DNA of 24,006 nt, from the UHGV virus genome UHGV-1462358, one strand, 5' to 3'. A model generated the notes under the pieces. It had not been told where the DNA came from and made no database searches. It saw only the letters and a list, made by a program, of their open reading frames with translations. Source of the stretch: a virus. A program made the position numbers and the translations under genes. Position 1 is the first letter of the stretch. Each line of letters begins with the position of its first letter. This document shows positions 73-24,006 of the stretch, piece by piece.

Positions 73-132
73 CAGAAAGGAAATGCTAATCATGGAAAAC
101 GGAAGTTAACCGTTGATTGTTTCCTTTCTCTG
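73..132 (+). promoter_or_regulatory. cosB-like region with two terminase small-subunit binding elements (R2-like inverted at 73-86, R1-like at 118-132) upstream of nu1
   Basis: TGTTTCCTTTCTCTG at 118-132 and its inverted relative CAGAAAGGAAATGC at 73-86 resemble lambda R1/R2 (CGTTTCCTTTCT-type) as I recall them. They sit immediately 5' of the Nu1 start, as in lambda cosB. cosN itself is not in the window. Confidence 0.5.
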
Positions 133-152
133 TTTTGTGCCAGGAGTGAGCC

Positions 153-698
153 ATGGAGGTTAACAAAAAACGCTTATCCGAAATTTTCGGGGTGAGCGTC
201 CGAACGATTCAGAACTGGCAGGAACAAGGTATGCCGGTTGCCCGCGGTGGTGGCAAGGGTAATGAGGTTCTCTTTGAATCTGCTGCCGCAATCGAATGGT
301 ACAGTGCGCGCGATGCAGCCATAGAAAATGAAAAGTTGCGGAAGGAAGTTGAAGATCTCCGCATTGCTTCTGAGTCCGATCTTCAACCTGGCACTATTGA
401 ATATGAGCGACACCGACTTACGCGAGCTCAGGCTGACGCTCAGGAATTAAAAAATGCAAAAGAGTCCGCTGAAGTGGTGGAGACCGCATTCTGCACGTTC
501 GTGCTGTCGCGGGTAGCCGGAGAAATTGCCAGTATTCTCGATGGAATACCTCTGTCGGTTCAGCGGCGCTTCCCGGAGCTGGAGAACCGACATATTGATT
601 TCCTCAAGAAGGACATCATTAAGGCCATGAACAAAGCAGCTGCGCTGGATGAAATGATACCGGGGTTGCTGAGTGAATATATCGAACAGTCAGGTTAA
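153..698 (+). CDS. nu1: Terminase small subunit (lambda gpNu1 homolog)
   Basis: 181 aa, same length as lambda Nu1. N-terminus MEVNKKRLSEIFGVSVRTIQNWQEQGMP is near-identical to lambda Nu1 as recalled (winged HTH). ATG at 153 preceded by CAGGAG. Confidence 0.95.
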   Translation: MEVNKKRLSEIFGVSVRTIQNWQEQGMPVARGGGKGNEVLFESAAAIEWYSARDAAIENEKLRKEVEDLRIASESDLQPGTIEYERHRLTRAQADAQELKNAKESAEVVETAFCTFVLSRVAGEIASILDGIPLSVQRRFPELENRHIDFLKKDIIKAMNKAAALDEMIPGLLSEYIEQSG

Positions 699-2595: not shown

Positions 2596-2801
2596 TGGCA
2601 ACACAGACTGAACTGGATGCCGCGCGCGCTGCGTTACATGACCTGATGATGGGAAAGCGCGTGGCGACGGTACAGAAAGACGGTCGAAGAGTGGAATTTA
2701 CAGCCACATCAGTCAGCGATCTCAAAAAATATATTGCTGACCTTGAATCTCAGGTTGGTACCACATCACGACGCCGGGGGCCAGCAGGGTTTTACGTATG
2801 A
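2595..2801 (+). CDS. W: Head-tail joining protein (lambda gpW homolog)
   Basis: 68 aa, same as lambda gpW. The sequence ...[40 protein letters not shown]...[10 protein letters not shown] is near-identical to lambda W as recalled. ATG overlaps the A stop. Confidence 0.9.
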
Positions 2802-4390: not shown

Positions 4391-5714
4391 TCTTCCGCAT
4401 ATCGCCAGTATGGCCTTTAATGAGCCGCTGATGCTTGAACCCGCCTACGCGCGGGTTTTCTTTTGTGCCTTAGCTGGTCAGCTGGGCATCACCCGGCTGA
4501 CAGATACCGTCTCTGGCATCACGCTTGACGCCGGACAAATAGCCGAACCGCTGGCGCTGTTTGGTGAAGATGATGACATGGATACCCGACCATCGCGAAG
4601 CTATCAGGTGGCAAATGGCATCGCGGTCTTGCCGGCTTCCGGCACTCTGGTGAGTAAAACCCGTGCGCTGCAGCCTTATTCCGGGATGACGGGTTACAAC
4701 GGGATCATCGCTCGCCTGCAGCAGGCCATCAGTGACCCCGGCGTCGACGGCATTCTACTGGACATGGATACGCCGGGTGGCATGGTGTCCGGGGCGTTTG
4801 ACTGCGCCGACATTATTGCCCGTATGCGCGATATCAAACCCATCTGGGCGCTGGCCAATGACATGAACTGCAGTGCAGGTCAGCTTATTGCCAGTTCGGC
4901 ATCGCGACGGCTGGTCACACAAACGGCCAGAACCGGCTCCATTGGGGTCATGATGGCGCACAGTAACTATGGCGCTGCGCTCAAAACTAACGGCGTTGAG
5001 GTCACGCTGATTTACAGCGGCGATCGCAAGGTCGACGGCAACCCTTACGAAAAGCTTCCGAAAGATGTGCGTGCTGATTTCCAGACGCGTATCGATGCCA
5101 CTCGTCAGATGTTTGCCGAAAAGGTTTCCGCTTATACCGGCATGTCTGTTCAGGACGTGCTGGACACCGAAGCGGCAGTATTCTCCGGCCAGGAATCTTT
5201 GGATAACGGGCTGGCGGATGAACTTGTTAACAATACCGATGCGCTCGGCGTGATGCGCGAAGCACTCGACAGACGCAAAAAAACAACCCTTGGAGGAACT
5301 ATGCCATCACCTTCTGCATCAGCTGTGACCACTAAGCCAGTTGACCAGGCAGCAACTCAGACAACTGCATCAGCTGAACAGGCCACTACCGTTGACACGA
5401 CAATTGCTTCCGTAGCAGCCCCTGTAGATGTCAGTGCGCAGGTTACTGCAGCAGTAGCTGCAGAGAATAGTCGCATCATGGGCATCCTGAACTGCGACGA
5501 GGCTAAAGGGCGTGAGTCACAGGCGCGAGCACTGGCCGAAACGCCGGGTATGACGGTAGAGAGCGCACAGCGCATTCTGGCTGCTGCACCGCAAAGTGCC
5601 CAGACGCGTACCGATACGGCGCTGGATCGTTTGATGGAAACAGCACCCGGTGCACTCCAAGCAGGTAGCGCATCTTCTGATGCCGCTGACGATTTGTTAA
5701 ACACCCCCGTTTAA
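4371..5714 (+). CDS. C: Head maturation protease / scaffold (lambda gpC homolog)
   Basis: 447 aa. N-terminus [37 protein letters not shown] and the C-terminal AAVAAENSRIMGILNC...LLNTPV match lambda gpC as recalled. Overlaps the B 3' end. Confidence 0.9.
   Translation: MAHELRNLPHIASMAFNEPLMLEPAYARVFFCALAGQLGITRLTDTVSGITLDAGQIAEPLALFGEDDDMDTRPSRSYQVANGIAVLPASGTLVSKTRALQPYSGMTGYNGIIARLQQAISDPGVDGILLDMDTPGGMVSGAFDCADIIARMRDIKPIWALANDMNCSAGQLIASSASRRLVTQTARTGSIGVMMAHSNYGAALKTNGVEVTLIYSGDRKVDGNPYEKLPKDVRADFQTRIDATRQMFAEKVSAYTGMSVQDVLDTEAAVFSGQESLDNGLADELVNNTDALGVMREALDRRKKTTLGGTMPSPSASAVTTKPVDQAATQTTASAEQATTVDTTIASVAAPVDVSAQVTAAVAAENSRIMGILNCDEAKGRESQARALAETPGMTVESAQRILAAAPQSAQTRTDTALDRLMETAPGALQAGSASSDAADDLLNTPV
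5304..5714 (+). CDS. nu3: Nested in-frame scaffolding protein (lambda Nu3-like), translated from an internal start within C
   Basis: In-frame ATG at 5304 preceded by GGAGGA (5295-5300). Lambda encodes Nu3 in-frame within the 3' third of C. Ala/Thr/Gln-rich composition fits a scaffold. Confidence 0.5.
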   Translation, partial: PSPSASAVTTKPVDQAATQTTASAEQATTVDTTIASVAAPVDVSAQVTAAVAAENSRIMGILNCDEAKGRESQARALAETPGMTVESAQRILAAAPQSAQTRTDTALDRLMETAPGALQAGSASSDAADDLLNTPV

Positions 5715-5723
5715 GAGGCTATC

Positions 5724-6056
5724 ATGGCAATTACTGAAGTTTTCACACATAACCAGCCGCTCGGTAACAGCGACCCGGCGCACACTGCGTATGGTCCTGG
5801 CGAACTGACAGCTTCCACTCCAGCCATGACGCCGCTCATGCTGGATGCCACTTCTGGCAAGCTGGCCGTCTGGGATGGTGCTCATGCTGGCGCGGCAATG
5901 GGCATCCTGGCTGTAACCGCAGACCAGAACAGCGCGGAACTGGCATTTTACAAATCTGGCTCTTTCCGTATTGAAGATGTCCTCTGGCCATCTGCCGTCA
6001 CCGACGACAACATTAAACGTAACGCGTTCGCCGGTACTGCAATCAGCATCGTTTAA
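5724..6056 (+). CDS. D: Head decoration protein (lambda gpD homolog)
   Basis: 110 aa, same as lambda gpD. NSDPAHTA...PAMTPLMLD...[10 protein letters not shown] matches lambda D as recalled. Confidence 0.9.
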
Positions 6057-6088
6057 TCCGCATTTCTACAACCATCATCATTCATAAA

Positions 6089-6110
6089 AGCCGCCTGCGC
6101 GGCTTTTTTT
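6089..6110 (+). terminator. Rho-independent terminator-like hairpin between D and E
   Basis: AGCCGC-CTGC-GCGGCT stem-loop at 6089-6104 followed directly by TTTTTTT (6104-6110), 14 nt before the E start codon. Confidence 0.55.
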
Positions 6111-6123
6111 ACGGGAAATATCT

Positions 6124-7149
6124 ATGTCCGTTTACACCACTGCCCAGCTGCTGGCGGTCAATGAGAAGAAATTCAAATTCGATCCGCTTTTCCTGCGTAT
6201 CTTTTTCCGCGAAACCTATCCCTTCAGTACAGAGAAGGTTTACCTGTCGCAAATTCCTGGCCTGGTCAATATGGCGCTTTACGTCTCGCCGATTGTCTCC
6301 GGCAAAGTGATCCGCTCCCGTGGCGGCAGCACGTCTGAATTCACGCCGGGTTATGTGAAGCCGAAACACGAAGTTAACCCACTGATGACTCTCCGCCGCC
6401 TGCCGGATGAGGATCCGCAGAATCTCGCTGACCCGGTCTATCGCCGTCGCCGCATTATCCTTCAGAACATGAAGGATGAAGAGCTGGCGATTGCTCAGGT
6501 CGAAGAGAAACAGGCTGTTTCGGCGGTGCTCAGCGGTAAATACACCATGACCGGGGAAGCGTTCGAGCCTGTTGAAGTCGATATGGGCCGCAGCGCTGGT
6601 AACAACATTGTCCAGGCCGGTGCGGCTGCATGGTCAACCCGCGACAAAGAAACGTATGACCCGACCGATGACATTGAAGCCTACGCGCTCAACGCCAGCG
6701 GTGTGGTCAACATCATTGTGTTCGATCCGAAAGGCTGGGCGCTGTTCCGTTCCTTCAAGGCTGTTGAGAAGAAGCTGGATACGCGTCGTGGTTCTAACTC
6801 TGAGCTGGAAACTGCCGTGAAAGACCTGGGTATGGCTGTTTCATACAAGGGGATGTTTGGCGATGTGGCCATCGTGGTGTACTCCGGCCAGTACGTCGAA
6901 AACGACGTCAAAAAGAATTATCTGCCGGACCTGACAATGGTGCTGGGGAATACCCAGGCTCGTGGCCTGCGTACCTATGGCTGCATTCTTGATGCTGATG
7001 CCCAGCGCGAAGGTATCAATGCCTCGACACGCTACCCGAAAAACTGGGTGCAGTCGGGGGATCCGGCGCGCGAATTCACCATGATTCAGTCAGCTCCGCT
7101 GATGCTGCTGCCAGACCCTGACGCATTCGTCTCCGTCAAACTGGCATAA
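6124..7149 (+). CDS. E: Major capsid protein (lambda gpE homolog)
   Basis: 341 aa, same as lambda gpE. Long stretches (EKVYLSQIPGLVNMALYVSPIVSG..., DPTDDIEAYALNASGVVNIIVFDPKGWALFRSFKAV) are near-identical to lambda E as recalled. Confidence 0.95.
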   Translation: MSVYTTAQLLAVNEKKFKFDPLFLRIFFRETYPFSTEKVYLSQIPGLVNMALYVSPIVSGKVIRSRGGSTSEFTPGYVKPKHEVNPLMTLRRLPDEDPQNLADPVYRRRRIILQNMKDEELAIAQVEEKQAVSAVLSGKYTMTGEAFEPVEVDMGRSAGNNIVQAGAAAWSTRDKETYDPTDDIEAYALNASGVVNIIVFDPKGWALFRSFKAVEKKLDTRRGSNSELETAVKDLGMAVSYKGMFGDVAIVVYSGQYVENDVKKNYLPDLTMVLGNTQARGLRTYGCILDADAQREGINASTRYPKNWVQSGDPAREFTMIQSAPLMLLPDPDAFVSVKLA

Positions 7150-7194
7150 CTTCCCCCAGTGGCCCTGTCGGGCCACCTTTCTGGAGTATTTCCC

Positions 7195-7620
7195 ATGACA
7201 GAAAAAGAAAAGCTGGTCGCCCGCCTGAATGAACTTGGGACCCAGCTTAACCGCGAGGTCAGTACCAGCGGCACCATTCAGGAACTGACGATGCGTATTG
7301 CTGAGCTTGAAGAGGAACTGGATGGCAATGCCGGGTCAGTTGACGGTGAAAACGGCGTGCAGAATGCTTCCGACAGCACCGACAGCACCGACAGCACCGA
7401 CAGCACCGACAACAATGTTGCTAACGTGGCAAAAGTAAAAACGGAATCGGCCACAACGGGTGACCTGGTATCAGTAGAAACGCTGGCCACCCTGCATATT
7501 GACGCTCTGCATGCCACGCGTAACGAGCCGGTATCTATCGTAGAGCCTGGTGTGATTATCCGCGTATCTGAACAGGATGCCGACGACTTGATCGCAAAGG
7601 GGCTGGCTTTCGAAGTCTGA
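7195..7620 (+). CDS. FI: DNA-packaging/head assembly protein (lambda gpFI homolog)
   Basis: Start moved from the track's GTG at 7159 to ATG at 7195, preceded by GGAG; MTEKEKLVARLNELGTQLNREV parallels the lambda FI N-terminus. The C-terminal LATLHIDALHATRNEPV motif also matches lambda FI as recalled. Confidence 0.8.
   Translation: MTEKEKLVARLNELGTQLNREVSTSGTIQELTMRIAELEEELDGNAGSVDGENGVQNASDSTDSTDSTDSTDNNVANVAKVKTESATTGDLVSVETLATLHIDALHATRNEPVSIVEPGVIIRVSEQDADDLIAKGLAFEV
7372..7410 (+). repeat. Perfect 9-bp tandem repeat (GACAGCACC x4.3) inside FI, encoding (DST)n linker
   Basis: GACAGCACC repeated four times plus GAC, directly visible at 7372-7410. Encodes DSTDSTDSTDSTD in the acidic linker between the FI N- and C-terminal domains. 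Confidence 0.9.
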
Positions 7621-7630
7621 AGGGGGCCAC

Positions 7631-7984
7631 ATGGCTGATTTCGATAATCTCTTTGACGAGGCCATGTCGCGAGCTGATAGCGCTATCCGTGGTGTGATGG
7701 GCACAGAGGCAAAGGTGATGTCAGGCGCTTTGTCAGGTGCCACCCTGGTCGGTGTATTCGATGATCCAGAAAATATCGGATATGCCGGTGCCGGGATTCG
7801 TGTTGAAGGAACCAGCCCGACCCTGTTTGTGGAAACCGCCACTGTCAGGCAGCTGCAGCGTATGGACACGCTGACGATTAACGGTCGGCAATTCTGGGTT
7901 GAACGTATTGGTCCGGATGACTGTGGCTCCTGTCATATCTGTCTGGGTAACGGCTCTCCACCTGCATCTTCGCGTCGCCGTTAA
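7631..7984 (+). CDS. FII: Head-tail connector protein (lambda gpFII homolog)
   Basis: 117 aa, same as lambda FII. MADFDNLFD... and the C-terminal ...RRR match as recalled. Confidence 0.9.
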   Translation: MADFDNLFDEAMSRADSAIRGVMGTEAKVMSGALSGATLVGVFDDPENIGYAGAGIRVEGTSPTLFVETATVRQLQRMDTLTINGRQFWVERIGPDDCGSCHICLGNGSPPASSRRR

Positions 7985-7993
7985 GGAGCGCAT

Positions 7994-8548
7994 ATGTCCA
8001 TAAAAGGCCTTGAACAGGCCATAGAAAACCTTAACAGCATCAGCAAAACGGCTGTTCCGCGGGCATCGGCGCAGGCCGTTAACCGCGTGGCAAACCGGGC
8101 CGTCAGCCGCAGCGTGGCAGTCGTATCAAAAGATACGCGCGTACCGCGAAAACTGGTAAAGCAACGCGCCAGGGTGAAGCGTGCGACGGTCAATAGACCT
8201 CGTGCACTTATCCGGGTAAACCGGGGAAATTTACCGGCCATTAAACTCGGTACCGCAAGCGTGCGACTTTCCCGCAGAAAACGGGACAAGAAAGGGGCCA
8301 ACAGCGTTCTGCGCATAGGGCCATTTCGTTTTCCGGGCGGCTTTATCCAGCAACTTAAAAATGGTCGCTGGCATGTCATGAGGCGGACTTCAAAACCTCG
8401 TTACCCCATTGAAGTGGTCAGCATCCCGCTGGCAGCTCCATTAACTACGGCATTTAAAGAAGAACTGCCGAAGCTCATGGAGTCAGATATGCCCAAAGAG
8501 CTCCGAGCATCCCTTACCAACCAACTCAGGTTAATTCTGACACGATGA
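7994..8548 (+). CDS. Z: Tail completion protein (lambda gpZ homolog)
   Basis: 184 aa basic protein at the syntenic position between FII and U. ATG at 7994 preceded by AAGGAG. Confidence 0.8.
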   Translation: MSIKGLEQAIENLNSISKTAVPRASAQAVNRVANRAVSRSVAVVSKDTRVPRKLVKQRARVKRATVNRPRALIRVNRGNLPAIKLGTASVRLSRRKRDKKGANSVLRIGPFRFPGGFIQQLKNGRWHVMRRTSKPRYPIEVVSIPLAAPLTTAFKEELPKLMESDMPKELRASLTNQLRLILTR

Positions 8549-8943
8549 AACACAGCGATATTCGCAAGGTGATTATTGACGCGCTGGAAAGCGCGATTGG
8601 TACTGATGTCATTTATTTTGACGGCAGACCTGCAGTGCTCGAAGAGGGTGATTTTCCCGCTGTTGCCGTCTACCTGACAGATGCGGAATACACAGGGGAA
8701 GAACTGGACGCCGATAGCTGGCAGGCCATTCTGCATATCGAAGTCTTTCTTGAGGCTCAGGTACCTGATTCTGATCTGGATGACTGGATGGAGACGAGAG
8801 TGTATCCGGTTCTCGCAGAGGTTCCGGGGCTTGAATCTCTTATCACCACAATGGTTCAGCAGGGCTATGACTACCAGCGCGATGACGATATGGCGCTGTG
8901 GAGTTCTGCCGACCTGAAATATTCCATTACTTACGACATGTGA
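8545..8943 (+). CDS. U: Tail terminator protein (lambda gpU homolog)
   Basis: 132 aa versus 131 for lambda gpU. ATGA overlap with the Z stop. Syntenic position before V. Confidence 0.85.
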
Positions 8944-8950
8944 GGACCCT

Positions 8951-9688
8951 ATGGCCACACCAAACCCGCTGGCACCAACAAAAGGTGCTGGTACCACCCT
9001 CTGGGTTTACACCGGAACTGGTGATCCATACGCCAATCCGCTTTCAGACGTTGACTGGCTGCGCCTGGCAAAGATTAAAGACCTGCAGCCCGGAGAACTG
9101 ACAGCTGAATCGGAAGATGACACCTACATCGATGATGAGAATGCCGACTGGACATCAACGATGCAGGGGCAGAAATCAGCCGGTGAAACAAACCTGACGC
9201 TCGCATGGATGCCGGAGGATTCCGGTCAGCAGGACCTGGTGAACTGGTTCGATGAAGGCACCGTGAAGGGGTATAAAATCAAATATCCGAATGGTGTTGT
9301 CGATGTCTTTAAGGGCTGGGTGAGCAGTCTCGGCAAGACCATCTCGTCTAAAGAGGTCATGACCCGCACGGCAAAAATCACCAACAATGGCAAACCATCG
9401 CTGGCCGAAGACAGTGGTACCGCGCCGATTGCCGTTACGGGGATCAGCCTGGATAAATCCACGGCGGCTGTGGCTGTCGCGGCCACGACGCAACTGGTTG
9501 TTTCTGTCCTGCCAGCAAGTGCTTCAGATAAGTCTTTCCGCGTAGCCAGTTCTGATCCGTCAAAAGCAACGGTCACCGTCAGCGGCAATACCCTGACTGT
9601 TACCGGCGTGGCGGCAGGCACCGTCGAGATCATCGTAATGAGCAATGACGGTAACTTTGTGGCGATCTGCAAAGTCACTGTTTCCTGA
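8951..9688 (+). CDS. V: Major tail tube protein (lambda gpV homolog) with C-terminal Ig-like (Big_2-type) domain
   Basis: 245 aa versus 246 for lambda gpV. The C-terminal ~90 aa ([15 protein letters not shown]...[23 protein letters not shown]...) has the alternating beta-strand pattern of a bacterial Ig-like domain, as in lambda gpV. Confidence 0.95.
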
Positions 9689-9692
9689 TAAC

Positions 9693-9708
9693 CGGGGCGA
9701 AAGCCCCG
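9693..9708 (+). other. GC stem-loop with GAAA tetraloop just downstream of V (possible mRNA stabiliser or weak attenuator)
   Basis: CGGGGC-GAAA-GCCCCG at 9693-9708, 5 nt after the V stop. Only two T follow, so it is not a canonical intrinsic terminator. Confidence 0.35.
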
Positions 9709-9724
9709 TTCCCCCGGAGTAATT

Positions 9725-10147
9725 ATGTTTCTAAAGAGCGAGCTGCTTGAAAGTAACGGCAGCAGCGTCACATTGTTCCAGCTGTCGGCGCTGCAGCGTA
9801 TTGAATACCTCGAATACCTGAAACAACTTGAGGCGGTTGAAGCTGGTGATTTTCAGGCTGCCATTACCCTTACCGTGAAGAGTGGAGCATATCTGGTGGC
9901 AATGTCACTCTGGCATGGCCACGCGCTTAAAGGATCGCAGGGAGAAAACGCGGCGGCGGAAGTGGAGCAGATTCAGGATGAGGTCATGCAGACATGGCCG
10001 ACCGAACTTGTTGCCGAAGCCGAATATAAGGTGAAACTCCTGTCCGGGATGATTGCGCCGGTCACTGATGACCAGGCTGAGCCCGGTGAAGAACGTAATG
10101 AACCCGCTGAACCTGTTACTGCGGAAAAGCCCTCGCCAGTGAGCTGA
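9725..10147 (+). CDS. G: Tail assembly chaperone (lambda gpG homolog)
   Basis: 140 aa, same as lambda gpG. Acidic C-terminus. Syntenic position between V and H. Confidence 0.9.
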   Translation: MFLKSELLESNGSSVTLFQLSALQRIEYLEYLKQLEAVEAGDFQAAITLTVKSGAYLVAMSLWHGHALKGSQGENAAAEVEQIQDEVMQTWPTELVAEAEYKVKLLSGMIAPVTDDQAEPGEERNEPAEPVTAEKPSPVS

Positions 10148-10476
10148 AGTTTGCCATGAAACTGGCGCGTGAGTTCGGTCGCCCGGACTGGCGTGCCATG
10201 CTTGCTGGCATGTCCTCAACGGAATACGGCGACTGGAAAATCTTCTACCAGGACAATTACTTTCATGATGCGCAGCTGGATGCTCATTTCTCCGGTTTGC
10301 TCTACACCATCTCAACCCTGTTTTTTGCTGATCCGGAATTAACACCGGACAGTTTCAGCATCCTTTCCCCTGTATCGGAAAGCATCGACGTTGATGAGCC
10401 GGATGACGATACGCTGATGGCGAAGGCTGCAGGTATTTCAGGAGGCGTGCGCTATGGCCCAGACGGCAGTGGGTGA
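9725..10476 (+). CDS. T: Tail assembly chaperone G-T fusion made by programmed -1 ribosomal frameshift near 10123-10129 (T part ends at 10476)
   Basis: The -1 frame is open from the stop at 10108-10110 through 10476 and encodes MKLAREFGRPDWRAMLAGMSSTEYGDWKIFYQDNYFHD, matching lambda gpT as recalled. The only slippery run in the open overlap is G-GAA-AAG (10123-10129); lambda uses G-GGA-AAG. Confidence 0.65.
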
Positions 10477-12970
10477 TCTGGTCGTTAACCTTGACGTTAA
10501 CTCGACGAAATTTAACGAGCAGCTTAACTACGTCAAAAAAGAATTAAAGCAGACTGGCAGCGCGGCGAACGACGAAGCGCTACGGATCCAGCAGTCCTTT
10601 AGCCGCCAGGAGAACGCCGCGCGCAAGGCGGGTATTTCAATAGGCCAGTATAACGCAGCAATGCGTATGCTTCCGGCGCAGTTTACCGATATAGCTACGC
10701 AGCTAGCGGGCGGGCAGAACCCATGGCTGATTCTGCTTCAGCAGGGCGGTCAGGTTAAGGACTCCTTTGGCGGGATAATACCAACATTCAGGGCCTTACT
10801 GGGTACGATCTCACCGTTGATGGTCGGCATCGGTGCGCTGTCCGCCGCAACGGGTGCGCTGTTCTATGCCTGGTACCAGGGCTCATCCACACTATCTGAC
10901 TTCAACAAAACGCTGGTACTGTCGGGGAACACGGCCGGATTGACTGCCGATCGTATGTTGGCGCTGGCACGAAACGGCCAGGCAGCGGGGCTGACGTTCA
11001 ATCAGACCAGCGAAGCCCTGAGCGAGCTTATCAACGCGGGGGTGGGCGCGAGTTCGCGCTTTGATGAAATGAGCCAGGCGGTGGCGCGATTTACTGATGC
11101 CTCCGGCGTGCCGGTGGAAAAAGTCGCAGCCGCATACGGCAAGCTCACTACTGACCCTACATCAGGCCTGATCGCGATGGCTCAGCAGTTCCACAACGTT
11201 ACGGCCGAACAGATTGCCCATGTGGCACAGCTGCAGCGTGCCGGTGATGAGGCTGGCGCACTGCAGGCGGCTAATCAGGCTGCTACTGCCGGATTCAACG
11301 ATCAGACCAAGGCCATCCGCGACAATATGGGGACGATTGAGTCTTCAGCGGATTCCCTGAAGCGTGCCTTCAAGTCGATGTGGGATGCTGCACTTGATAT
11401 TGGCAGACCTGACACCGCCCAGGAGATGGTGGCAAAAGCCCAGGCCGCGTTTAAAAAGGCTGATGAAATCTGGAACCTGCGTAAAGGTGACCGATATGTC
11501 AATGATGAGGCTCGCGCCCGATTCTGGAATGACCGCGAAACGGCCAGGCTTGCGCTGGATATGGCGCAGCAGCAGGCGGGAATTGCCATGGCGAACGAAG
11601 AGAATGCATCGCGCGAAGCGGCTGCGGAATCGGATCGCCAGAAGTATGCTGCGCAGGCACAGGCAAACTATGCCAAAACGCAGACGGCACTGGAGAAATA
11701 CACGGCCAGGCAGAGCGAGCTCAACAAGGCGCTGAAAGAGGGGCGGATCCTCCAGGCTGACTACAACATCAACCTGGCTGCCGCGAAAAAAGAGTACGAA
11801 GACACCCTTAAAAAGCCGAAGAAAACACCTGCAGTCAGGACTCCTGCCGGTACCCGTGCAACCGATGCGGCCAGCGCCCAGACGATGGAGCTGGAAGCAC
11901 AGCTGCGCACCCTGCAGGAGCATAAGGGGATAAATGACACCATCAGCCAGCAGCGTCAGGAGCTGTGGCGTAAGCAGTCCCGTTTTACGGTTCTGGAAGA
12001 GGCCGCGAAGACCCGGACGCTTTCTGCCGAGGAAAAATCCCTGCTGGCCAGTAAAAGCGAGGTGCTTTCCCGTGCGGAGCTGAACGCGAAGCTCGGCGAT
12101 CAGATAGTGGCGCAGGAGCGGCTTAATCGCCTGCAGGATACGTCCCAAAAATACGTCACGCAGATCGGCGAGAAAACCCGAGCCCTGGCGGAAAGTGCTG
12201 GTATGAGCAGTCGTGCAGCACAACGCCGCAACGAGGAGGCCCAGCTTCTTCAGGGGTGGAAAAATGGTGGAGGTTCCGAAAACGATGCCGGTTATCAGAA
12301 TGAGCTGCAGGGGCTGCATGCGTATTACGCCGAGCAGGATAAGCTTCGGGGTGACTGGCAATCCGGAGCCAAATCCGCATGGGCAGATTATGTTGATTCT
12401 GCTTCTGATGCTTATGGCCAGATGAAGTCGTTTGCCAGCAGTACGTTTGATGGCATTGGGCAAAATATGGCTGACATGCTGACGCGCGGAAAGGCTGACT
12501 GGGCTGACTTCACCCGCTCCACGCTCTCCATGCTGACACAGATCCTGCTGAAACAGGCGATGGTAGGCCTGGTGGATTCAGCATCAACCGCGCTGGGATT
12601 TGCAGGTGGCGGTTATACCGGTTCAGGCGGGAAATATGAGCCAGCAGGTGTCGTTCACCGTGGTGAGTTTGTTTTCACCAAAGAGGCTACCAGCAGGATC
12701 GGCGTCGGCAATCTTTACCGGATGATGAAAGGCTATGCAACGGGAGGGTATGTCGGGGGCGGTGGTACAGGCCCGGCTGCAGCACCTTTCGGTGTCAGTG
12801 TGTATGCCCCGGTGACGGTCGAGAATGCTTCCGGTAACGCACAGCAGCAAAACGACGGAGACAGGCTGGGTAAGGCGTATCAGCAGGTGATTAACAAATC
12901 TGTCAATGATGGTATCGCTAGGGCAATCCAGCCCGGTGGGCTTATCTGGAATGCGACCAATCGCAGGTAA
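10454..12970 (+). CDS. H: Tail tape measure protein (lambda gpH homolog)
   Basis: 838 aa versus 853 for lambda gpH. Ala/Gln-rich predicted coiled-coil body and Gly-rich C-terminus. ATG at 10454 preceded by GGAGG, overlapping the T 3' end. Confidence 0.95.
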   Translation: MAQTAVGDLVVNLDVNSTKFNEQLNYVKKELKQTGSAANDEALRIQQSFSRQENAARKAGISIGQYNAAMRMLPAQFTDIATQLAGGQNPWLILLQQGGQVKDSFGGIIPTFRALLGTISPLMVGIGALSAATGALFYAWYQGSSTLSDFNKTLVLSGNTAGLTADRMLALARNGQAAGLTFNQTSEALSELINAGVGASSRFDEMSQAVARFTDASGVPVEKVAAAYGKLTTDPTSGLIAMAQQFHNVTAEQIAHVAQLQRAGDEAGALQAANQAATAGFNDQTKAIRDNMGTIESSADSLKRAFKSMWDAALDIGRPDTAQEMVAKAQAAFKKADEIWNLRKGDRYVNDEARARFWNDRETARLALDMAQQQAGIAMANEENASREAAAESDRQKYAAQAQANYAKTQTALEKYTARQSELNKALKEGRILQADYNINLAAAKKEYEDTLKKPKKTPAVRTPAGTRATDAASAQTMELEAQLRTLQEHKGINDTISQQRQELWRKQSRFTVLEEAAKTRTLSAEEKSLLASKSEVLSRAELNAKLGDQIVAQERLNRLQDTSQKYVTQIGEKTRALAESAGMSSRAAQRRNEEAQLLQGWKNGGGSENDAGYQNELQGLHAYYAEQDKLRGDWQSGAKSAWADYVDSASDAYGQMKSFASSTFDGIGQNMADMLTRGKADWADFTRSTLSMLTQILLKQAMVGLVDSASTALGFAGGGYTGSGGKYEPAGVVHRGEFVFTKEATSRIGVGNLYRMMKGYATGGYVGGGGTGPAAAPFGVSVYAPVTVENASGNAQQQNDGDRLGKAYQQVINKSVNDGIARAIQPGGLIWNATNRR

Positions 12971-12975
12971 CAGTT

Positions 12976-13323
12976 ATGACGATAGAAACATTCCCCTGGG
13001 GCATTAAGGTTTCCAGCCAGCCCACCGAGGGAAGTAAAGACATAGTCAGGAAAGTCCAGTTCGGCGACGGGTACGCACAGGTGAGCGGCTCCGGCCTGAA
13101 TGATGAGATTCGCACCTATGAATATTCCTTTTCAGGAGATCCGACTACAGCGAATGAAATCCATGCCTTCCTTCGTCGGCATAAAGTGAAGTCATTTATT
13201 TTCACTCCGCCTTTCGGCGATACCGCGCTGTGGCGTGTAGAGGCTGACACGCTCAAAAAGGTGGTTAAAAACGTAAAAGTGATAACCGTAACCGCAACGT
13301 TTGAACAGGCATTTACACCATGA
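12976..13323 (+). CDS. M: Minor tail protein (lambda gpM homolog)
   Basis: 115 aa at the syntenic position after H. Confidence 0.85.
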   Translation: MTIETFPWGIKVSSQPTEGSKDIVRKVQFGDGYAQVSGSGLNDEIRTYEYSFSGDPTTANEIHAFLRRHKVKSFIFTPPFGDTALWRVEADTLKKVVKNVKVITVTATFEQAFTP

Positions 13324-14075
13324 GTCTTAATGCTGATTATCAAAAACTTGAGCCGGGCAATGAAGTCCGGCTTTTTTCTGTCGATGGTACAGCGTTCGGT
13401 ATGTCAGATGTGCTCCGCTTCCACGCACACAATATCGCGCACACCCCGGAAGAGATTGAAGCCGCAGGCGGCGACGAGAATAAACTTCCGGCGAAGTCCA
13501 TCTGGTGGCAGGGGGAGGAGTATAAAGCCTGGCCGTGTCAGGTTGAGGGTATTGAAGCGACCACGGATGGTACCAGCCCACAGCCAAAACTGAGGGTGGC
13601 GAACCTGGACAGCTCGATCTCAGCGCTCTGTCTGGCGTATGACGATCTGCTGCAGGCGAAAGTGAGTATCCACGACACGCTGGCACAGTATCTGGACGCC
13701 AGAAATTTTCCGCAGGGCAATCCCACTGCAGACCCGTCACAGGAAAAGCTGAAGGTCTTTTATATCGATGCCAGAAGCACCGAGACGGATGAAGTTGTCG
13801 AATTTACGCTTTCCAGTCCGATGGATTTACAGGGCCAGATGATTCCGACGCGTCAGCTGCATTCGTTATGCAGCTGGTGCATCCGGAACAAGTACCGGAC
13901 CGGCGACGGCTGCGACTATGCCGGAACGCGCTATTTCGACAAAAACAATAATCCGGTTGACGATCCCTCGCTGGATGTCTGCAACGGCACGCTGACGGCC
14001 TGCAAGCTCCGGCACGGAGACAGCAACGAACTGCCGTTCGGCGGTTTCCCGGGTACATCTCTTATCAGGAGCTGA
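13320..14075 (+). CDS. L: Minor tail protein (lambda gpL homolog), probable Fe-S cluster cysteines at C-terminus
   Basis: 251 aa. ATGA overlap with the M stop. C-terminal cysteine cluster (CSWC...GDGCDY...C...C) as in lambda gpL. Confidence 0.9.
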   Translation: MSLNADYQKLEPGNEVRLFSVDGTAFGMSDVLRFHAHNIAHTPEEIEAAGGDENKLPAKSIWWQGEEYKAWPCQVEGIEATTDGTSPQPKLRVANLDSSISALCLAYDDLLQAKVSIHDTLAQYLDARNFPQGNPTADPSQEKLKVFYIDARSTETDEVVEFTLSSPMDLQGQMIPTRQLHSLCSWCIRNKYRTGDGCDYAGTRYFDKNNNPVDDPSLDVCNGTLTACKLRHGDSNELPFGGFPGTSLIRS

Positions 14076-14076
14076 T

Positions 14077-14808
14077 ATGCGTCAGAAAACCATTGATGCC
14101 ATCATGGCACACGCTGCAGCGGAATATCCGCGCGAGTGCTGCGGCGTGGTGGCACAGAAAAGCCGGGTTGAGCGCTATTTTCCCTGTCGTAATCTCGCAG
14201 CAGAGCCGACTGAACATTTTCACCTGTCCCCCGAAGATTACGCAGCGGCAGAAGACTGGGGGACGGTGGTAGCCATTGTTCACAGCCATCCTGACGCGAC
14301 GACACAGGCCAGCGAGCTTGATAAGGCGCAGTGTGATGCAACACTGCTGCCCTGGCATATTGTGAGCTGGCCAGAGGGGGATTTACGTACCATTCAGCCA
14401 CGCGGGGAGCTCCCATTGCTGGAGCGACCGTTTGTGCTTGGCCACTTCGATTGCTGGGGTCTGGTAATGAGCTATTTCCGGCAGACCCACGGTATCGAGC
14501 TCTACGATTACCGGGTGGATTATCCCTGGTGGGAAAACGACTACCCGGACAATTTCTATCAGGATTGCTGGTATGAATGCGGATTCAGGGAGTTTGACGG
14601 CCCGACTCAGGAAGGGGACCTCGTCATCATGCAGGTGCAGGCTGATAAGTGGAATCATGCCGGGATTTTACTGGAGGGTAACATGCTGCTGCACCATCTT
14701 TACGGGCATCTGAGCCAGCGAGTTCCTTATGGCGGATACTGGCAGGAGCGCACGATGAAGATCGTTCGCTATAAAGATGTAATGGCAGGTGAAACATGCA
14801 GGAAGTAA
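14077..14808 (+). CDS. K: Tail assembly protein (lambda gpK homolog) with MPN/JAMM and NlpC/P60-like motifs
   Basis: 243 aa. JAMM-type motif in IVHSHPD and Cys/His motifs (FDCWGLV, WNHAGIL) typical of the gpK family. AGGAG before the ATG at 14077. Confidence 0.9.
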   Translation: MRQKTIDAIMAHAAAEYPRECCGVVAQKSRVERYFPCRNLAAEPTEHFHLSPEDYAAAEDWGTVVAIVHSHPDATTQASELDKAQCDATLLPWHIVSWPEGDLRTIQPRGELPLLERPFVLGHFDCWGLVMSYFRQTHGIELYDYRVDYPWWENDYPDNFYQDCWYECGFREFDGPTQEGDLVIMQVQADKWNHAGILLEGNMLLHHLYGHLSQRVPYGGYWQERTMKIVRYKDVMAGETCRK

Positions 14809-15383
14809 TGACCCGCATTGAGCTTGGCGGCGTGCTCGGGAAATCATTCGGTAAAATTCACCACCGCCTGATTTCCCGTGTAAGCGAGGCGGGAGTGGCG
14901 CTCGCAAAGACTATTCCGGGCTTTGAGCAGTTTATGATTTCCAGCCAGCGCCGTGGGCTCACATACTCCGTATTTAAGGGTAAAAAAAACATCGGTGTGG
15001 ATGACCTCGGTTTCCCGGTTACCGGCGATGTTATCCGCATTGTCCCGGTAATCATCGGGAGTAAAAAAGCCGGTTTGATTCAAACTATCCTGGGCGCAGT
15101 ATTAGTGATTGCATCGATCTGGATGCCAGGTCTGAGTATAGCTGCCAGCAATATGATGTTTGCTGCTGGTGCGTCCATAACGCTGGGGGGGGTAGTTCAG
15201 ATGATATCCCCTCAGGCTACAGGGCTGGCCAGCAAACAGAGCTCAGATAACCGCGCCTCATACGCGTTCGGCGGAGTCACAAATACCGCCGCACAGGGTT
15301 ACCCGGTTCCGCTCCTGTACGGCCGCCGGAGAATCGGCGGGGCAATTATTTCTGCCGGAATTTATGTCGAAGATCAGCAGTAG
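14796..15383 (+). CDS. I: Tail assembly protein (lambda gpI homolog)
   Basis: 195 aa. Hydrophobic Gly/Ala-rich central segment and C-terminal PLLYGRRRIGG motif resembling lambda gpI (PVLYGEMRVG). Overlaps the K 3' end. Confidence 0.85.
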   Translation: MQEVMTRIELGGVLGKSFGKIHHRLISRVSEAGVALAKTIPGFEQFMISSQRRGLTYSVFKGKKNIGVDDLGFPVTGDVIRIVPVIIGSKKAGLIQTILGAVLVIASIWMPGLSIAASNMMFAAGASITLGGVVQMISPQATGLASKQSSDNRASYAFGGVTNTAAQGYPVPLLYGRRRIGGAIISAGIYVEDQQ

Positions 15384-15400
15384 TTAACAAACCTTTTTAC

Positions 15401-15426
15401 AAGCCACCTTCGGGTGGCTTTTTTTA
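15401..15426 (+). terminator. Intrinsic terminator/attenuator between I and J
   Basis: AAGCCACC-TTCG-GGTGGCTT perfect 8-bp stem with UUCG tetraloop (15401-15420) followed by TTTTTT (15420-15425), 11 nt before the J ATG. Confidence 0.7.
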
Positions 15427-15436
15427 TGGGCGCGAT

Positions 15437-18400
15437 ATGGCTAAAACAATTACCGGACGAAAAGGCGGGAGCTCCAGTTCCCGAACTCCCACCGAACAGC
15501 CTGATGATCTGCAATCTGTAGCGAAGGCAAAGATCCTCGTTGCGCTTGGGGAAGGGGAGTTTGCTGGACAGCTCACCGGGAAGGATATCTACCTGGACGG
15601 AACGGCGCTGGAGAACGCCGACGGCTCCCAAAACTTCAGCGGCGTTACGTGGGAATTTCGTCCGGGGACTCAGGCACAAAAATATATTCAGGGTATCCCC
15701 GGCACCGAAAATGAAATCAGCGTGGGCACCGAAGTGTCAAGCACCACCGGCTGGACACATACCTTTACCAACACGCAACTGTCAGCCGTTCGCCTGCGCC
15801 TCAAGTGGCCATCGCTTTTTAAACAGGAGGATGATGGCGATCTGGTTGGCTATTCAATTAACTACGCTATTGATCTGCAGACCGATGGCGGCACCTGGCA
15901 GACGGTACTTAATACCAGCGTAACCGGCAAGACAACTTCCGGCTACGAACGCAGCCATCGCATTGACCTACCGCAGGCAGGCAGCACATGGACGGTGCGC
16001 CTGCGTAAGCTAACGGCGGATGCCAACAGCGCGAAAATTGGTGACACGATGACGCTGCAGAGCTATACAGAGGTCATTGACGCCAAACTGCGTTATCCAA
16101 ATACCGCGCTGCTGTACATCGAATTCGACTCAAGCCAGTTTAACGGCTCTATCCCGCAAATATCCTGCGAACCGCGAGGGCGTGTAATCCGCGTTCCGGA
16201 TACGTATGACCCGGAGACCCGCACCTATAGCGGCACATGGACGGGGGCGTTTAAGTGGGCGTGGACGGATAATCCAGCCTGGATTTTTTACGATCTGGTG
16301 GTGAGCGACCGCTTTGGGCTGGGCAATCGCCTGACGGCGGCCAATATTGATAAATGGACGCTTTACCAGGTCGCGCAATATTGCGATCAGCCGGTTCCTG
16401 ATGGTAAAGGCGGTAGCGGCACTGAGCCTCGCTATACCTGCAACGTGTATGTGCAGGAGAGGAATGACGCCTATACCGTGTTACGAGATTTTGCGGCGAT
16501 ATTCCGGGGCATGACTTACTGGGGTGGCGATCAAATCGTTGCGCTGGCGGATATGCCCCGCGATGTGGATTACAGCTACACGCGTGCAAACGTGGTTAAT
16601 GGGCGCTTTACCTATTCGGGCAGCACCACGAAAACCCGCTATACCACAGCACTGGTTTCCTGGTCCGATCCGGGTAATGCCTACGCGGATGCGATGGAGC
16701 CTGTATTTGAGCAGGATCTCGTTGCTCGCTTTGGCACAAATCAGCTCGAAATGACAGCCATTGGTTGTACCAGACAGTCAGAAGCGAACCGAAAGGGGCG
16801 CTGGGGTATTCTCACCAACAACAAGGATCGCGTTGTTTCGTTCGATGTCGGGCTGGACGGAAACATACCGCAGCCTGGCTATATCATCGCTGTGGCAGAC
16901 GAGCTGCTTTCCGGAAAGGTTATGGGCGGACGCATCAGCGCCGTTAATGGTCGCGTTATCAAACTTGACCGTGTAGCTGATGCGGCAGCAGGTGATCGCC
17001 TTATCCTCAACCTTCCCTCCGGAGCGTCACAGAGCAGGACAATTCAGGCGGTTAACGGGGAATCGGTCACAGTCACCACCGCATACAGTGAGACGCCGCA
17101 GGCCGAAGCTGTCTGGGTGGTTGAGTCAAACGAACTGTACGCACAGCAGTACCGTGTTGTGAGCGTCACTGATAACGATGATGGCACTTTCACCATTACC
17201 GGTGCATGGCACGATCCGGATAAATATGCCCGAATCGATACCGGAGCCATTATTGACCAGCGGCCGGTGAGCGTGATCCCGCCGGGCAATCAGTCACCGC
17301 CAGACAACATCGTAATCAGTTCGTTTTCGGTGGTGCAGCAGAATATCAGCGTCGAAACCATGCGCGTGAGCTGGGACCAGGCGCAGAATGCTATCGCCTA
17401 TGAAGCGCAATGGCGCCGCAACGACGGGAACTGGGTTAACGTGCCGCGCAGTTCCACCACGTCATTCGACGTTCCTGGGATTTATGCCGGGCGCTATCTG
17501 GTACGTGTACGCGCCATCAATGCCGCAGAAATTTCATCCGGGTGGGGATATTCGGAAGAGAAAACGCTGACGGGTAAAGTGGGCAATCCGCCGAAACCGG
17601 TCGGCTTCATCGCTTCCGATAATGTGGTATTCGGTATCGAGCTGAGCTGGGGATTCCCGGCGAACACCGACGACACGCTGAAGACGGAAATTCAGTACAG
17701 TCTGACTGGGACGGAAGACGATGCGATGCTGCTGGCAGACGTACCCTATCCGCAGCGCAAGTATCAGCAGATGGGCCTAAAGGCTGGGCAAATTTTCTGG
17801 TACCGCGCGCAGCTGGTGGACCGCAGCGGAAACGAATCAGGGTATACAGACTTTGTGCGCGGGCAGGCCAGCATCGATGTATCCGATATCACCGATGCAA
17901 TCCTGGAGGATATGAAAGAGTCGGAAACGTTCAAAGACCTGATCGAGAACGCGGTAGACAGCAATGAAAAAATTGCTGGTATGGCTGACGACATTAAACA
18001 GGCCAACGACGAACTGGCGCAACAGGCGCAGGATATCGCCAAAAACGCCCAGGATATCGGGAAGGTTCAGACCAGCGTTACAAACCTGTCGAGCACGGTC
18101 GGAGATGTGTCTTCTTCTCTGAGCAAGCTTGAGCAGACAGTGGCGACGGCTGATACCGCGCTGGGCCAGCGCATCGATAACATCAGCGTGTCTGTGGACG
18201 GTATGACGGGAGGAGTGAAGAACTCTGCCATCGCGATTATTCAGGGCAACCTGGCGCAGGTGGCGGCGCGCAAAACGCTGTCTGCATCCGTCGCCGGTAA
18301 CAGCGCGCAGCTGGACCGCATTGATGAGGTGATCGTCAACGAGAAAGAGGCAACGGCGCGTTCGCTGCTGAGTTTGCAGACTAACGTGAACGGCAACAAG

Positions 18401-18982
18401 GCATCTATCAACAGCCTGAACCAGACGTTCTCCGATTACCAGCAGGCCACGGCCACGCAGATAAACGGGATCACAGCGACCGTCAACGGACACACATCAG
18501 CCATTACCACTAACGCTCAGGCCATAGCGAACGTTAACGGTGATCTGAAGGCGATGTACAGCATCAAGGTTGGTGTCTCCAGCAATGGTCAGTATTACGC
18601 CGCAGGGATGGGGATCGGCGTGGAGAATACGCCGTCCGGCATGCAGTCACAGGTCATCTTCCTGGCTGACCGCTTCGCCGTCACCACGGCAGCAGGTAAC
18701 AGCGTGGCTTTGCCGTTTGTGATCCAGAACGGGCAGACATTCATCCGGGCCAGTTTCATCCAGGACGGCACTATCAGCAACGCAAAGATTGGTAATTTTA
18801 TCCAGTCGAACAATTATGTTGCTGGTTCTGCTGGCTGGAAGCTTGATAAAGGGGGGACGTTTGAGAACTACGGTTCGACTGCTGGTGAGGGAGCCATGAA
18901 ACTGACAAATCAGACGATCAGCGTCAAAGATGGCAGTAATGTTCTTAGGGTGCAGGTTGGCCGATTAACGGGAGTATTCTGA
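15437..18982 (+). CDS. J: Central tail fibre / host specificity protein (lambda gpJ homolog)
   Basis: 1181 aa versus 1132 for lambda J. Conserved blocks (TEVIDAKLRYPNTALLYIEFDS, YSGTWTGAFKWAWTDNPAWIFYDL, YQVAQYCDQPVPDGKGGSGTEPRYTCNVY) match lambda J as recalled. The C-terminal ~150 aa differ from lambda. Confidence 0.95.
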   Translation: MAKTITGRKGGSSSSRTPTEQPDDLQSVAKAKILVALGEGEFAGQLTGKDIYLDGTALENADGSQNFSGVTWEFRPGTQAQKYIQGIPGTENEISVGTEVSSTTGWTHTFTNTQLSAVRLRLKWPSLFKQEDDGDLVGYSINYAIDLQTDGGTWQTVLNTSVTGKTTSGYERSHRIDLPQAGSTWTVRLRKLTADANSAKIGDTMTLQSYTEVIDAKLRYPNTALLYIEFDSSQFNGSIPQISCEPRGRVIRVPDTYDPETRTYSGTWTGAFKWAWTDNPAWIFYDLVVSDRFGLGNRLTAANIDKWTLYQVAQYCDQPVPDGKGGSGTEPRYTCNVYVQERNDAYTVLRDFAAIFRGMTYWGGDQIVALADMPRDVDYSYTRANVVNGRFTYSGSTTKTRYTTALVSWSDPGNAYADAMEPVFEQDLVARFGTNQLEMTAIGCTRQSEANRKGRWGILTNNKDRVVSFDVGLDGNIPQPGYIIAVADELLSGKVMGGRISAVNGRVIKLDRVADAAAGDRLILNLPSGASQSRTIQAVNGESVTVTTAYSETPQAEAVWVVESNELYAQQYRVVSVTDNDDGTFTITGAWHDPDKYARIDTGAIIDQRPVSVIPPGNQSPPDNIVISSFSVVQQNISVETMRVSWDQAQNAIAYEAQWRRNDGNWVNVPRSSTTSFDVPGIYAGRYLVRVRAINAAEISSGWGYSEEKTLTGKVGNPPKPVGFIASDNVVFGIELSWGFPANTDDTLKTEIQYSLTGTEDDAMLLADVPYPQRKYQQMGLKAGQIFWYRAQLVDRSGNESGYTDFVRGQASIDVSDITDAILEDMKESETFKDLIENAVDSNEKIAGMADDIKQANDELAQQAQDIAKNAQDIGKVQTSVTNLSSTVGDVSSSLSKLEQTVATADTALGQRIDNISVSVDGMTGGVKNSAIAIIQGNLAQVAARKTLSASVAGNSAQLDRIDEVIVNEKEATARSLLSLQTNVNGNKASINSLNQTFSDYQQATATQINGITATVNGHTSAITTNAQAIANVNGDLKAMYSIKVGVSSNGQYYAAGMGIGVENTPSGMQSQVIFLADRFAVTTAAGNSVALPFVIQNGQTFIRASFIQDGTISNAKIGNFIQSNNYVAGSAGWKLDKGGTFENYGSTAGEGAMKLTNQTISVKDGSNVLRVQVGRLTGVF

Positions 18983-20000: not shown

Positions 20001-20071
20001 CAAATCAATTATACCCACCTCTTTCATGTTGGTATTGTCTAAGTTCATGAATACCTCTGGATATCATCAAA

Positions 20072-20305
20072 ATGATTAAGCTTCTTATCGGTATGGCTTG
20101 CGCTGCCATGCTTTCAGGTTGCGCTGGTGTACTTGAGAAACAGGAACCGATTTGCAGCGGCACGGCATATATGGGTGGCCATGAGAATACCGTTATGATT
20201 TACGCCGTTCGAAAGCAAAACAACCAGACGCAATACCGGGCCGGATATCCCTTTAACTGGCGCTGGGTAAGTGCGAACACATTCACAAGCACGACATGTA
20301 AATAA
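20072..20305 (+). CDS. Small outer-membrane lipoprotein moron; putative Cor/Llp-like superinfection-exclusion protein
   Basis: 77 aa. Signal peptide MIKLLIGMACAAMLSGC with lipobox L-S-G-C. Located 3' of the receptor-binding genes and flanked by its own terminator. The Cor/Llp assignment rests on size, lipobox and position only. Confidence 0.6.
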   Translation: MIKLLIGMACAAMLSGCAGVLEKQEPICSGTAYMGGHENTVMIYAVRKQNNQTQYRAGYPFNWRWVSANTFTSTTCK

Positions 20306-20325
20306 CTCATGACTTTCAATGCAAA

Positions 20326-20347
20326 CCTCGCCTCGGCGGGGTTTTTT
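20326..20347 (+). terminator. Intrinsic terminator after the lipoprotein gene
   Basis: GC-rich hairpin (CCTCGCC/GGCGGGG arms) followed by TTTTTT at 20342-20347, 21 nt after the stop at 20305. Confidence 0.6.
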
Positions 20348-23891: not shown

Positions 23892-23920
23892 AAAAAAACC
23901 AGCCGTAAGAGGCTGGTTTT
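23892..23920. terminator. Bidirectional intrinsic terminator between the two-gene operon and the tRNA
   Basis: CCAGCC-GTAAGA-GGCTGG hairpin (23899-23916) flanked by A7 on the 5' side and T4 on the 3' side. It reads as a terminator on both strands. Confidence 0.7.
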
Positions 23921-23931
23921 CAATGTGTTTT

Positions 23932-24006
23932 TGGTCGGCACGAGAGGATTTGAACCTCCGACCCCCGACACCCCATGACGGTGCGCTACCAGGCTGCGCT
24001 ACGTGC
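23932..24006 (-). tRNA. tRNA-Pro (anticodon GGG), 5'-truncated by the window edge
   Basis: Reverse complement reads GCACGTAGCGCAGCCTGGTAGCGCACCGTCATGGGGTGTCGGGGGTCGGAGGTTCAAATCCTCTCGTGCCGACCA. It has D-arm, anticodon loop AUGGGGU (GGG), T-arm GGTTCAAATCC and 3' CCA, and matches E. coli proL as recalled apart from 2 missing 5' nt. Confidence 0.85.

Follow-up and report, generated by a model that had tools for sequence, protein, structure and literature searches.

A putative Rho-independent terminator upstream of tail gene J as the probable boundary of an accessory-gene slot in lambda/N15/HK97-type late operons

The I-J hairpin and its operon

The window, which is the whole 24,006-nucleotide stretch of viral DNA analyzed here (UHGV virus genome UHGV-1462358), covers the head and tail genes of a lambda/N15-like prophage, which form its late operon and are all on the plus strand. 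The gene order is Nu1/terminase, portal, D, E, tail tube, tape measure, M, L, K, I and J, and on the 3’ side of J come a lom-like gene, cor and the tail-fibre genes. The genes from Nu1 to J and the tail-fibre gene share one strand and the Q region lies outside of the window; in the related prophage of E. coli ECCRA-119 the Q, holin and lysozyme genes are located upstream of the head and tail genes on the same strand. The stretch of ECCRA-119 that is identical to gene I of the window is annotated as a "tail assembly protein". The features of the window and the two annotated counterparts discussed below are listed in Table 1.

Table 1. Features of the I-J junction, the neighboring genes, the other hairpins of the operon and annotated counterparts in N15 and HK97.
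Feature	Position	Strand	Basis or remark
Tail assembly gene I (195 aa)	14796-15383	+	phrog_32, E 2.5e-73
I stop codon TAG	15381-15383	+	sequence
I-J gap (53 bp)	15384-15436	+	sequence
Empty accessory-gene (moron) slot, 17-nt spacer	15384-15400	+	homology breakpoints in relatives
Terminator stem, 5’ arm AAGCCACC	15401-15408	+	sequence, independent scan, RNAfold
Loop TTCG (UUCG tetraloop), closed by a C-G pair	15409-15412	+	
Terminator stem, 3’ arm GGTGGCTT	15413-15420	+	sequence, scan, RNAfold, covariation
U-tract, 7 consecutive T's	15419-15425	+	first two T's pair with A15401-02
J ribosome-binding region ATGGGCGCGAT, abuts the U-tract	15426-15436	+	inferred from position
J start ATG	15437	+	sequence
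Central tail fibre/host specificity gene J (1181 aa)	15437-18982	+	phrog_31, phrog_2589, E 0
D-E gap terminator AAAAGCCGC-CTGC-GCGGCTTTT and 7-T run	6086-6110	+	13 nt upstream of the ATG of E (major capsid gene) at 6124
Post-E hairpin GTGGCCC-TGTC-GGGCCAC	7159-7176	+	no proper U-tract
Post-V hairpin CGGGGC-GAAA-GCCCCG	9693-9708	+	no proper U-tract
cor moron	20072-20305	+	phrog_1119
Post-cor terminator hairpin and T-run	20323-20347	+	then GGAG and the tail-fibre ATG at 20364
N15 stem_loop, "putative rho-indep. transcription terminator"	15307-15330		between genes 20 (I) and 21 (J); AF064539
HK97 "terminator, putative"	15107-15129		downstream of morons 22/23; AF069529

The preliminary description of this DNA placed a perfect 8-bp stem with a UUCG loop and a U-run in the 53-bp gap between I and J, and both its coordinates and its wording are correct. 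The hairpin has eight perfect pairs, five of which are G-C, and a 4-nt loop, and an independent scan returned the same site. It is located in non-coding DNA, 17 nt past the I stop codon and 16 nt ahead of the J ATG, and the J reading frame has no start codon earlier than 15437. The base that follows the U-tract, at position 15426, is an A. In its 57-nt gap context the RNAfold energy is -15.9 kcal/mol (z = -2.15 versus shuffles). On the minus strand the stem is followed by GTAAAAAGG and there is no T-run; therefore, the hairpin is a one-way signal for the plus strand. Strict terminator criteria (8 Watson-Crick pairs, at least 5 G-C, a loop of 3-6 and at least 6 T in 8) identify three sites on both strands of the 24-kb window, compared with a mean of 0.005 per dinucleotide shuffle. 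The site thus described combines a G+C-rich stem, a short loop, a U-tract on the operon strand and a non-coding position, and it is the structure rather than the sequence that is conserved among relatives. By its anatomy, conservation and covariation, the element is predicted to be a genuine Rho-independent terminator. A literature search did not find published RNA 3’-end mapping of the I-J junction.

Two other identities for the hairpin were considered and rejected. An Rfam scan of positions 15100-15800 with a permissive E-value returned no family that reaches its gathering threshold. The best match is MicA with 22.7 bits against a threshold of 41, and since all matches are below threshold and centred on the terminator hairpin, an identity as a small RNA or leader was rejected. 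The 25-mer of the hairpin occurs once in the window, even with 3 mismatches allowed, and the other intergenic hairpins have unrelated stems; a REP-like dispersed intercistronic palindrome was rejected on these grounds.

Besides the I-J hairpin, the operon has at least two more such terminators, one after D and one after cor. A homologue of the D-E terminator is annotated in N15 at 5980-6004 and is also present in the D-E gap of lambda, and a homologue of the post-cor terminator is annotated in N15 at 20021-20045. The mechanically predicted start of the tail-fibre ORF at 20319 is probably too early, because the post-cor hairpin, the GGAG and the in-frame ATG at 20364 lie beyond it; the PHROG matches start only from residue 15. 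The hairpins after E and V are without a U-tract and therefore cannot be terminators; they look more like mRNA-stabilizing stem-loops that follow genes for abundant proteins. The N15 record has terminators annotated at all five of these places (after D, E, V, I and cor). A stable hairpin is found in every plus-strand operon gap longer than 15 nt, with the exception of the gap upstream of cor, and these hairpins are about 13-19 nt from the next start codon.

The window also has structures elsewhere. A terminator-like hairpin with 9 pairs and a T-rich stretch after it is found at 13350-13373, within the coding start of gene L, and could be a product of chance. At the 3’ end of the window there is a two-way hairpin, flanked on each strand by T-rich sequence (23895-23920), and a tRNA-Pro(GGG) gene on the minus strand (23932-24006), which runs off the window end. 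In the region from 23895 to 24006, prophage and host DNA probably meet at a tRNA attachment site.

Conservation of the hairpin and cargo at the I-J junction

The preliminary description proposed a comparison of the I-J junction in related prophages. For this comparison, 240 loci were retrieved from IMG/VR with the N-terminal 200 aa of three J proteins as queries, one per clade, namely the J of the window, the J of lambda and the J of Aeromonas phage pAEv1818. The lambda-type J is about 31% identical to the J of the window and the pAEv1818 type about 51%. A terminator-like hairpin is present no more than 80 nt upstream of J in 238 of the 239 usable loci, compared with 23 of 1200 control windows inside J, and it has been kept with compensatory changes. 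The inner 5-bp stem has 14 distinct forms among homologous hairpins, which include CCACC/GGTGG, CCGCC/GGCGG, GGTGC/GCACC, CCAGC/GCTGG, CCCGC/GCGGG, CTGCC/GGCAG and GCCGC/GCGGC. No part of the hairpin varies more than the loop, which is nevertheless UNCG in 182 of 238 cases. Among 45 non-redundant sequences, 85% of cells are paired, six of the eight pairs have changed on both sides and 33 cells are compensatory; these pairing and covariation counts are underestimates, because some hairpins are one column out of register in the MAFFT alignment (A1). The covariation score is 0.297 versus 0.150 in shuffles, none of which reaches 0.297 (0 of 500), and register-slid controls do not exceed 0.125.

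The T-run columns of the same alignment are invariant or nearly so. An uninterrupted T-run of 6-8 is found in the clade of the window and in 75 of the 78 hairpins of the pAEv1818 clade, and the ATGG(G/A) after the T-run is nearly invariant in all three J clades. The U-tract of the lambda clade is interrupted (UUUUGUCAUUU), suggesting that its hairpin is a weaker terminator. The pattern of substitutions indicates selection for the structure of the hairpin and U-tract in all three J clades, and the earlier call of a canonical intrinsic terminator is upheld, as far as structure is concerned, by this conservation and covariation. In ten named relatives the hairpin is located about 16 nt ahead of the J ATG and is followed by T6-8 and then by ATGGGCGC(A/G)AT. 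This hairpin-to-J layout is unchanged whether the I-J gap of these relatives is about 52 nt or 317-698 nt.

The hairpin is absent from Morganella phage IME1369_02, a close relative with a 32-nt I-J gap, and from one of the 79 loci of the third clade; therefore, it is dispensable. In Enterobacter phage ST22, SECphi4 and Burkholderia phage phi644-2, I overlaps J and the hairpin is missing, and in Serratia phage Scapp the true J start appears to be directly after I. The "gap" after the I homologue of Scapp (NC_070875, locus L094, about 860-982) encodes a J-like N-terminus (KGGGGS...AKAKVL...), and the annotated GTG start of its J homologue is probably too far downstream. The T1-like Klebsiella phage vB_Kpn_K50_evo26 (locus L098, 769-846) has the hairpin GGCCCGC-CTTGC-GCGGGC with a T6 run right after its I homologue, and a TATAAT-like hexamer between this hairpin and J. 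The I-J junction of this phage may be a terminator-promoter pair.

The junction also has a second, variable component. In HK225, HK97, HK022 and mEp506, homology to the window ends at 15379-15383 and restarts at 15401/15402, and 317-698 nt of cargo separate the two points. Most loci have an I-J gap of about 50-70 nt; in approximately 43 of 238 (about 18%) it spans 200-1050 nt and includes ORFs. The cargo is of at least 10 unrelated types, and several of the encoded N-termini are signal-peptide or lipoprotein-like. These types include an 88-aa protein, a 238-aa UPF0257 protein with a signal peptide, lipoprotein-like proteins of 112 aa and 185 aa, forward genes of 189 aa and 279 aa, reverse genes of 210 aa and 129 aa, and HK022-type pairs of a forward and a reverse gene. 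The G+C content of the cargo is 39-45%, compared with 51-55% in the flanks. Genes 22/23 of HK97 and genes 22/23 (srb) of HK022 are annotated as encoding moron products. An apparent cargo of 1057 nt in locus L146 was excluded, since it consists of a J copy, duplicated or truncated, that includes an ambiguous base, and is an assembly artefact.

The accessory genes, although of many unrelated kinds, always lie past the I stop codon and ahead of the first stem base. Because the cargo always ends at this base, the hairpin is the fixed right-hand boundary of the cargo slot. In HK97 and in three further loci (L027, L107 and L200), no plus-strand site past the cargo ORF other than the J-proximal hairpin is terminator-like and has a continuous T-run. 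The homology breakpoints indicate that the hairpin is resident, that cargo is gained and lost upstream of it and that the slot is empty in the window. The layout after cor in the window is the same as the I-J layout with the slot filled.

The I and J homologues of Pseudomonas phage YMC11/02/R656 (locus L092, 191-645) have a forward and a reverse small gene between them, which is the layout of genes 22/23 in HK97 and of genes 22/srb in HK022. This phage suggests that the use of the I-J slot by accessory genes extends well beyond the enterobacterial phages.

The concept of the moron reportedly originates with Juhala et al. in 2000. A moron is defined as having its own promoter and its own terminator and as being expressed from the repressed prophage (PMC3594210). 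In the window there is no extra gene, since the 17-nt spacer is all that separates I from the hairpin, and the hairpin stands alone; a 3’ terminator after a cargo gene is found in HK97, L027, L107 and L200. A consensus scan finds no promoter-like sites on the plus strand of the window between 13340 and 22786, and promoter scans of four cargo-bearing loci give counts no higher than those of shuffles. Because neither the window nor these four loci are above background, the "own promoter" part of the moron model is unconfirmed.

The window is also related to the ECCRA-119 prophage (L090, NZ_CP029242), to which it is about 89% identical, in a mosaic pattern, over 119-17852. Perfect or near-perfect tracts are found at approximately 7319-8700, 9719-10118 and 14845-15831. 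A 100% match over 601 nt raised the possibility that the window is this prophage; the identity of about 89% in the full comparison makes it a different one. The J protein is 1181 aa in the window and 1060 aa in ECCRA-119, and the ECCRA-119 prophage is at a different locus (ompW-tonB-yciI). On the basis of these alignments the pair reads as a clear case of patchwise recombination among tail genes.

Possible roles of the hairpin

The reading favored here, with a probability of roughly 60%, is that the I-J element is a genuine Rho-independent terminator, that it belongs to a conserved block consisting of hairpin, U-tract, J ribosome-binding site and J, and that it bounds a moron slot in lambda/N15/HK97-type late operons. 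Lambdoid late operons depend on antitermination by Q (PMC2629481), and Q-loaded RNA polymerase reads through standard hairpin-plus-U-tract terminators and blocks the formation of the terminator hairpin (PMC9388147). An ordinary, non-antiterminated RNA polymerase would stop at the I-J hairpin, including any that initiates at the promoter of a moron or, in the repressed prophage, at a stray promoter. The transcripts stopped in this way would end just before the J ribosome-binding site, so that J and the genes beyond would not be entered. In lytic growth the Q-modified polymerase of the late operon would ignore the I-J terminator and J would be made. After read-through, the RNA hairpin may also shield the upstream message from 3’ exonucleases. 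About 80% of the loci have no cargo, yet the hairpin is kept under selection; therefore, it must have some function besides terminating the slot. What a prophage without cargo would gain from insulating J is not obvious. Also weighing against the favored reading are the promoter scans at background level, the interrupted U-tract of the lambda clade, the relatives in which the hairpin is missing and the location of the Q region outside of the window.

A smaller share of the probability goes to the idea that the hairpins after D, I and cor are kept for a second job that is not termination, which could be the stabilization or processing of the 20-kb late mRNA together with a U-rich translation enhancer, or service as capture points for accessory genes. 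If true, this would account for the compensatory substitutions that maintain the hairpin in approximately 80% of genomes despite an empty slot and a Q polymerase that would ignore it. A role of the hairpin after transcription, in the lytic cycle once Q-modified polymerase has read through, is likewise considerably less likely than the favored reading. The hairpin in the late mRNA would protect the upstream message from 3’-to-5’ exonucleases and/or keep the U-tract and the J ribosome-binding site clear of long-range base pairs, the U-tract would be an enhancer bound by ribosomal protein S1, and the terminator shape would be incidental or a second use. The stable hairpins in the operon gaps, which include the two without a U-tract after the abundant E and V, are consistent with such a role, as are their short distance to the next start codon (about 13-19 nt) and the selection on the hairpin in the cargo-less loci. 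Two of the three clades show almost no variation in the uninterrupted U6-8, a hallmark of termination that exonuclease protection does not need, and some phages do without any I-J spacer; both points argue against this role. A chance palindrome without a function has almost no probability left. Loose terminator-like patterns are common by chance (23 found versus 16.2 expected in 16 kb), but this explanation is refuted by the 0.005 strict sites per shuffled window, by the presence of the hairpin in all usable loci except one and by the compensatory substitutions.

The preliminary description offered two functions for the hairpin that can be weighed against the favored terminator reading. According to one, J is needed at a far lower copy number than the upstream tail proteins and partial termination could set its dosage. 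Some late-operon polymerases would then stop at the hairpin even in lytic growth, leaving less J mRNA than upstream tail-gene mRNA. A strong canonical terminator immediately upstream of the J ribosome-binding site and the conserved position of the hairpin fit this proposal. Antitermination by Q need not be 100% efficient at every site, which also speaks for it, and a small residual termination under Q is possible. The same type of terminator is located directly upstream of E in the window, N15 and lambda, however, and E, the major capsid protein, is the late protein required in the largest quantity. Also counting against a dosage function are the overlap of I with J in ST22, SECphi4 and phi644-2, the hairpin-less 32-nt gap of IME1369_02 and the blocking of standard terminator hairpins by Q-loaded polymerase (PMC9388147). 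The lambda tail tip contains 3 gpJ, 3 gpI, 3 gpL and 6 gpM (PMC11101478); therefore, J needs no step down relative to its upstream neighbors, and the supposed difference in copy number does not hold for these neighbors, with gpI and gpJ both at three. The control of J dosage by partial termination is thus improbable. The other proposal was that the hairpin marks a recombination joint where a different J/host-range module was gained, and such an exchange of modules at the hairpin is very unlikely. The proposal gains from the fact that the first base of the stem is the exact homology breakpoint in cargo-bearing relatives and that the I-J junction is a hotspot of gene gain and loss. The perfect-identity tract with the ECCRA-119 prophage at 14845-15831 crosses the hairpin, however, and the divergence of J from that prophage starts only after about 16100. 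HK75, mEp234, N15 and mEp237 align without a break from within or before I, over the hairpin and into J, and in HK97, HK022 and mEp506 homology to I (from 14951) and to the hairpin plus J flanks the insert. The homology of the relatives runs over the hairpin into the first 400-700 nt or so of J. The C-terminal part of gpI threads through the hub domains of gpJ (PMC11101478), which fits a joint inheritance of the 3’ end of I and the 5’ end of J rather than their separation. Since homology is uninterrupted from I over the hairpin into J, J modules are not exchanged at the hairpin. What stands of the proposal is that the hairpin is the right-hand edge of a hypervariable cargo slot.

The favored terminator reading has practical use in annotation, because accessory genes can be expected in the I-J gap, in a slot that runs from the I stop codon to the hairpin; therefore, prophage genes found there are good candidates for lysogenic conversion or phage exclusion. 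Terminators within the operons of lambda/N15/HK97-type phages should also not be taken for operon ends.

Comparison with known phage systems

A megablast of the I-J region against phage genomes gives matches to HK225 (93%), mEp237 (85%), N15 (82%) and the HK97/HK022/HK75/mEp group. In GenBank, N15, HK97, HK75, HK225 and mEp234 carry a (putative) rho-independent terminator annotation on the homologous hairpin, and the megablast match table has a terminator feature at the homologous site of mEpX1. The N15 stem_loop is at the same position as the hairpin of the window and shares the stem core GCCACC/GGTGGC, the T7 run and the ATGGGCGC that follows. The slot of N15 is empty too, with a 51-nt gap, and its annotated series of terminators after D, E, V, I and cor is mirrored in the window. 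The two differ in the loop (TCCG in N15, TTCG in the window) and in the length of the stem (7 bp versus 8), and their I-J regions are about 82-84% identical. In HK97, HK75, HK225 and mEp234 the same hairpin adjoins the J ribosome-binding site on its upstream side and forms the 3’ end of the slot. In HK97, HK022, HK225 and mEp506 the slot holds a forward gene, a reverse gene or both, whereas the window has a 17-nt spacer.

The I-J hairpin of lambda is located at about 15463-15482 of NC_001416 and is followed by TTTATGG and the J start, and its stem is two compensatory pair changes away from that of the window. It is unannotated in this RefSeq record. The lambda locus differs from the window in the first 200 aa of J, which are about 31% identical, and in its interrupted U-tract (UUUUGUCAUUU), so that the terminator is probably weaker. 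Other published work was found to have no bearing on the I-J gap. The prophage small RNAs of Tree et al. 2014 concern a moron site at pR’, and neither the study of Tai tail-assembly interference nor that of the Salmonella prophage transcriptome is relevant to the gap.

The pR’-tR’ system is similar in that a standard hairpin-plus-U-tract terminator lies inside a termination-resistant transcription unit (PMC9388147; PMC2629481). It differs because tR’ is a regulated decision point next to a promoter, whereas the I-J terminator is at least 15 kb downstream and has no known regulatory role. P22-like phages have a variable accessory-gene slot just 5’ of the tailspike gene (PMC2629481). As at the I-J junction, that slot is directly upstream of the gene for the receptor-binding protein and at the distal end of the late operon; the virion type and the genes are different. 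The I-J terminator itself is an already known and ordinary feature of lambda/N15/HK97-type genomes.
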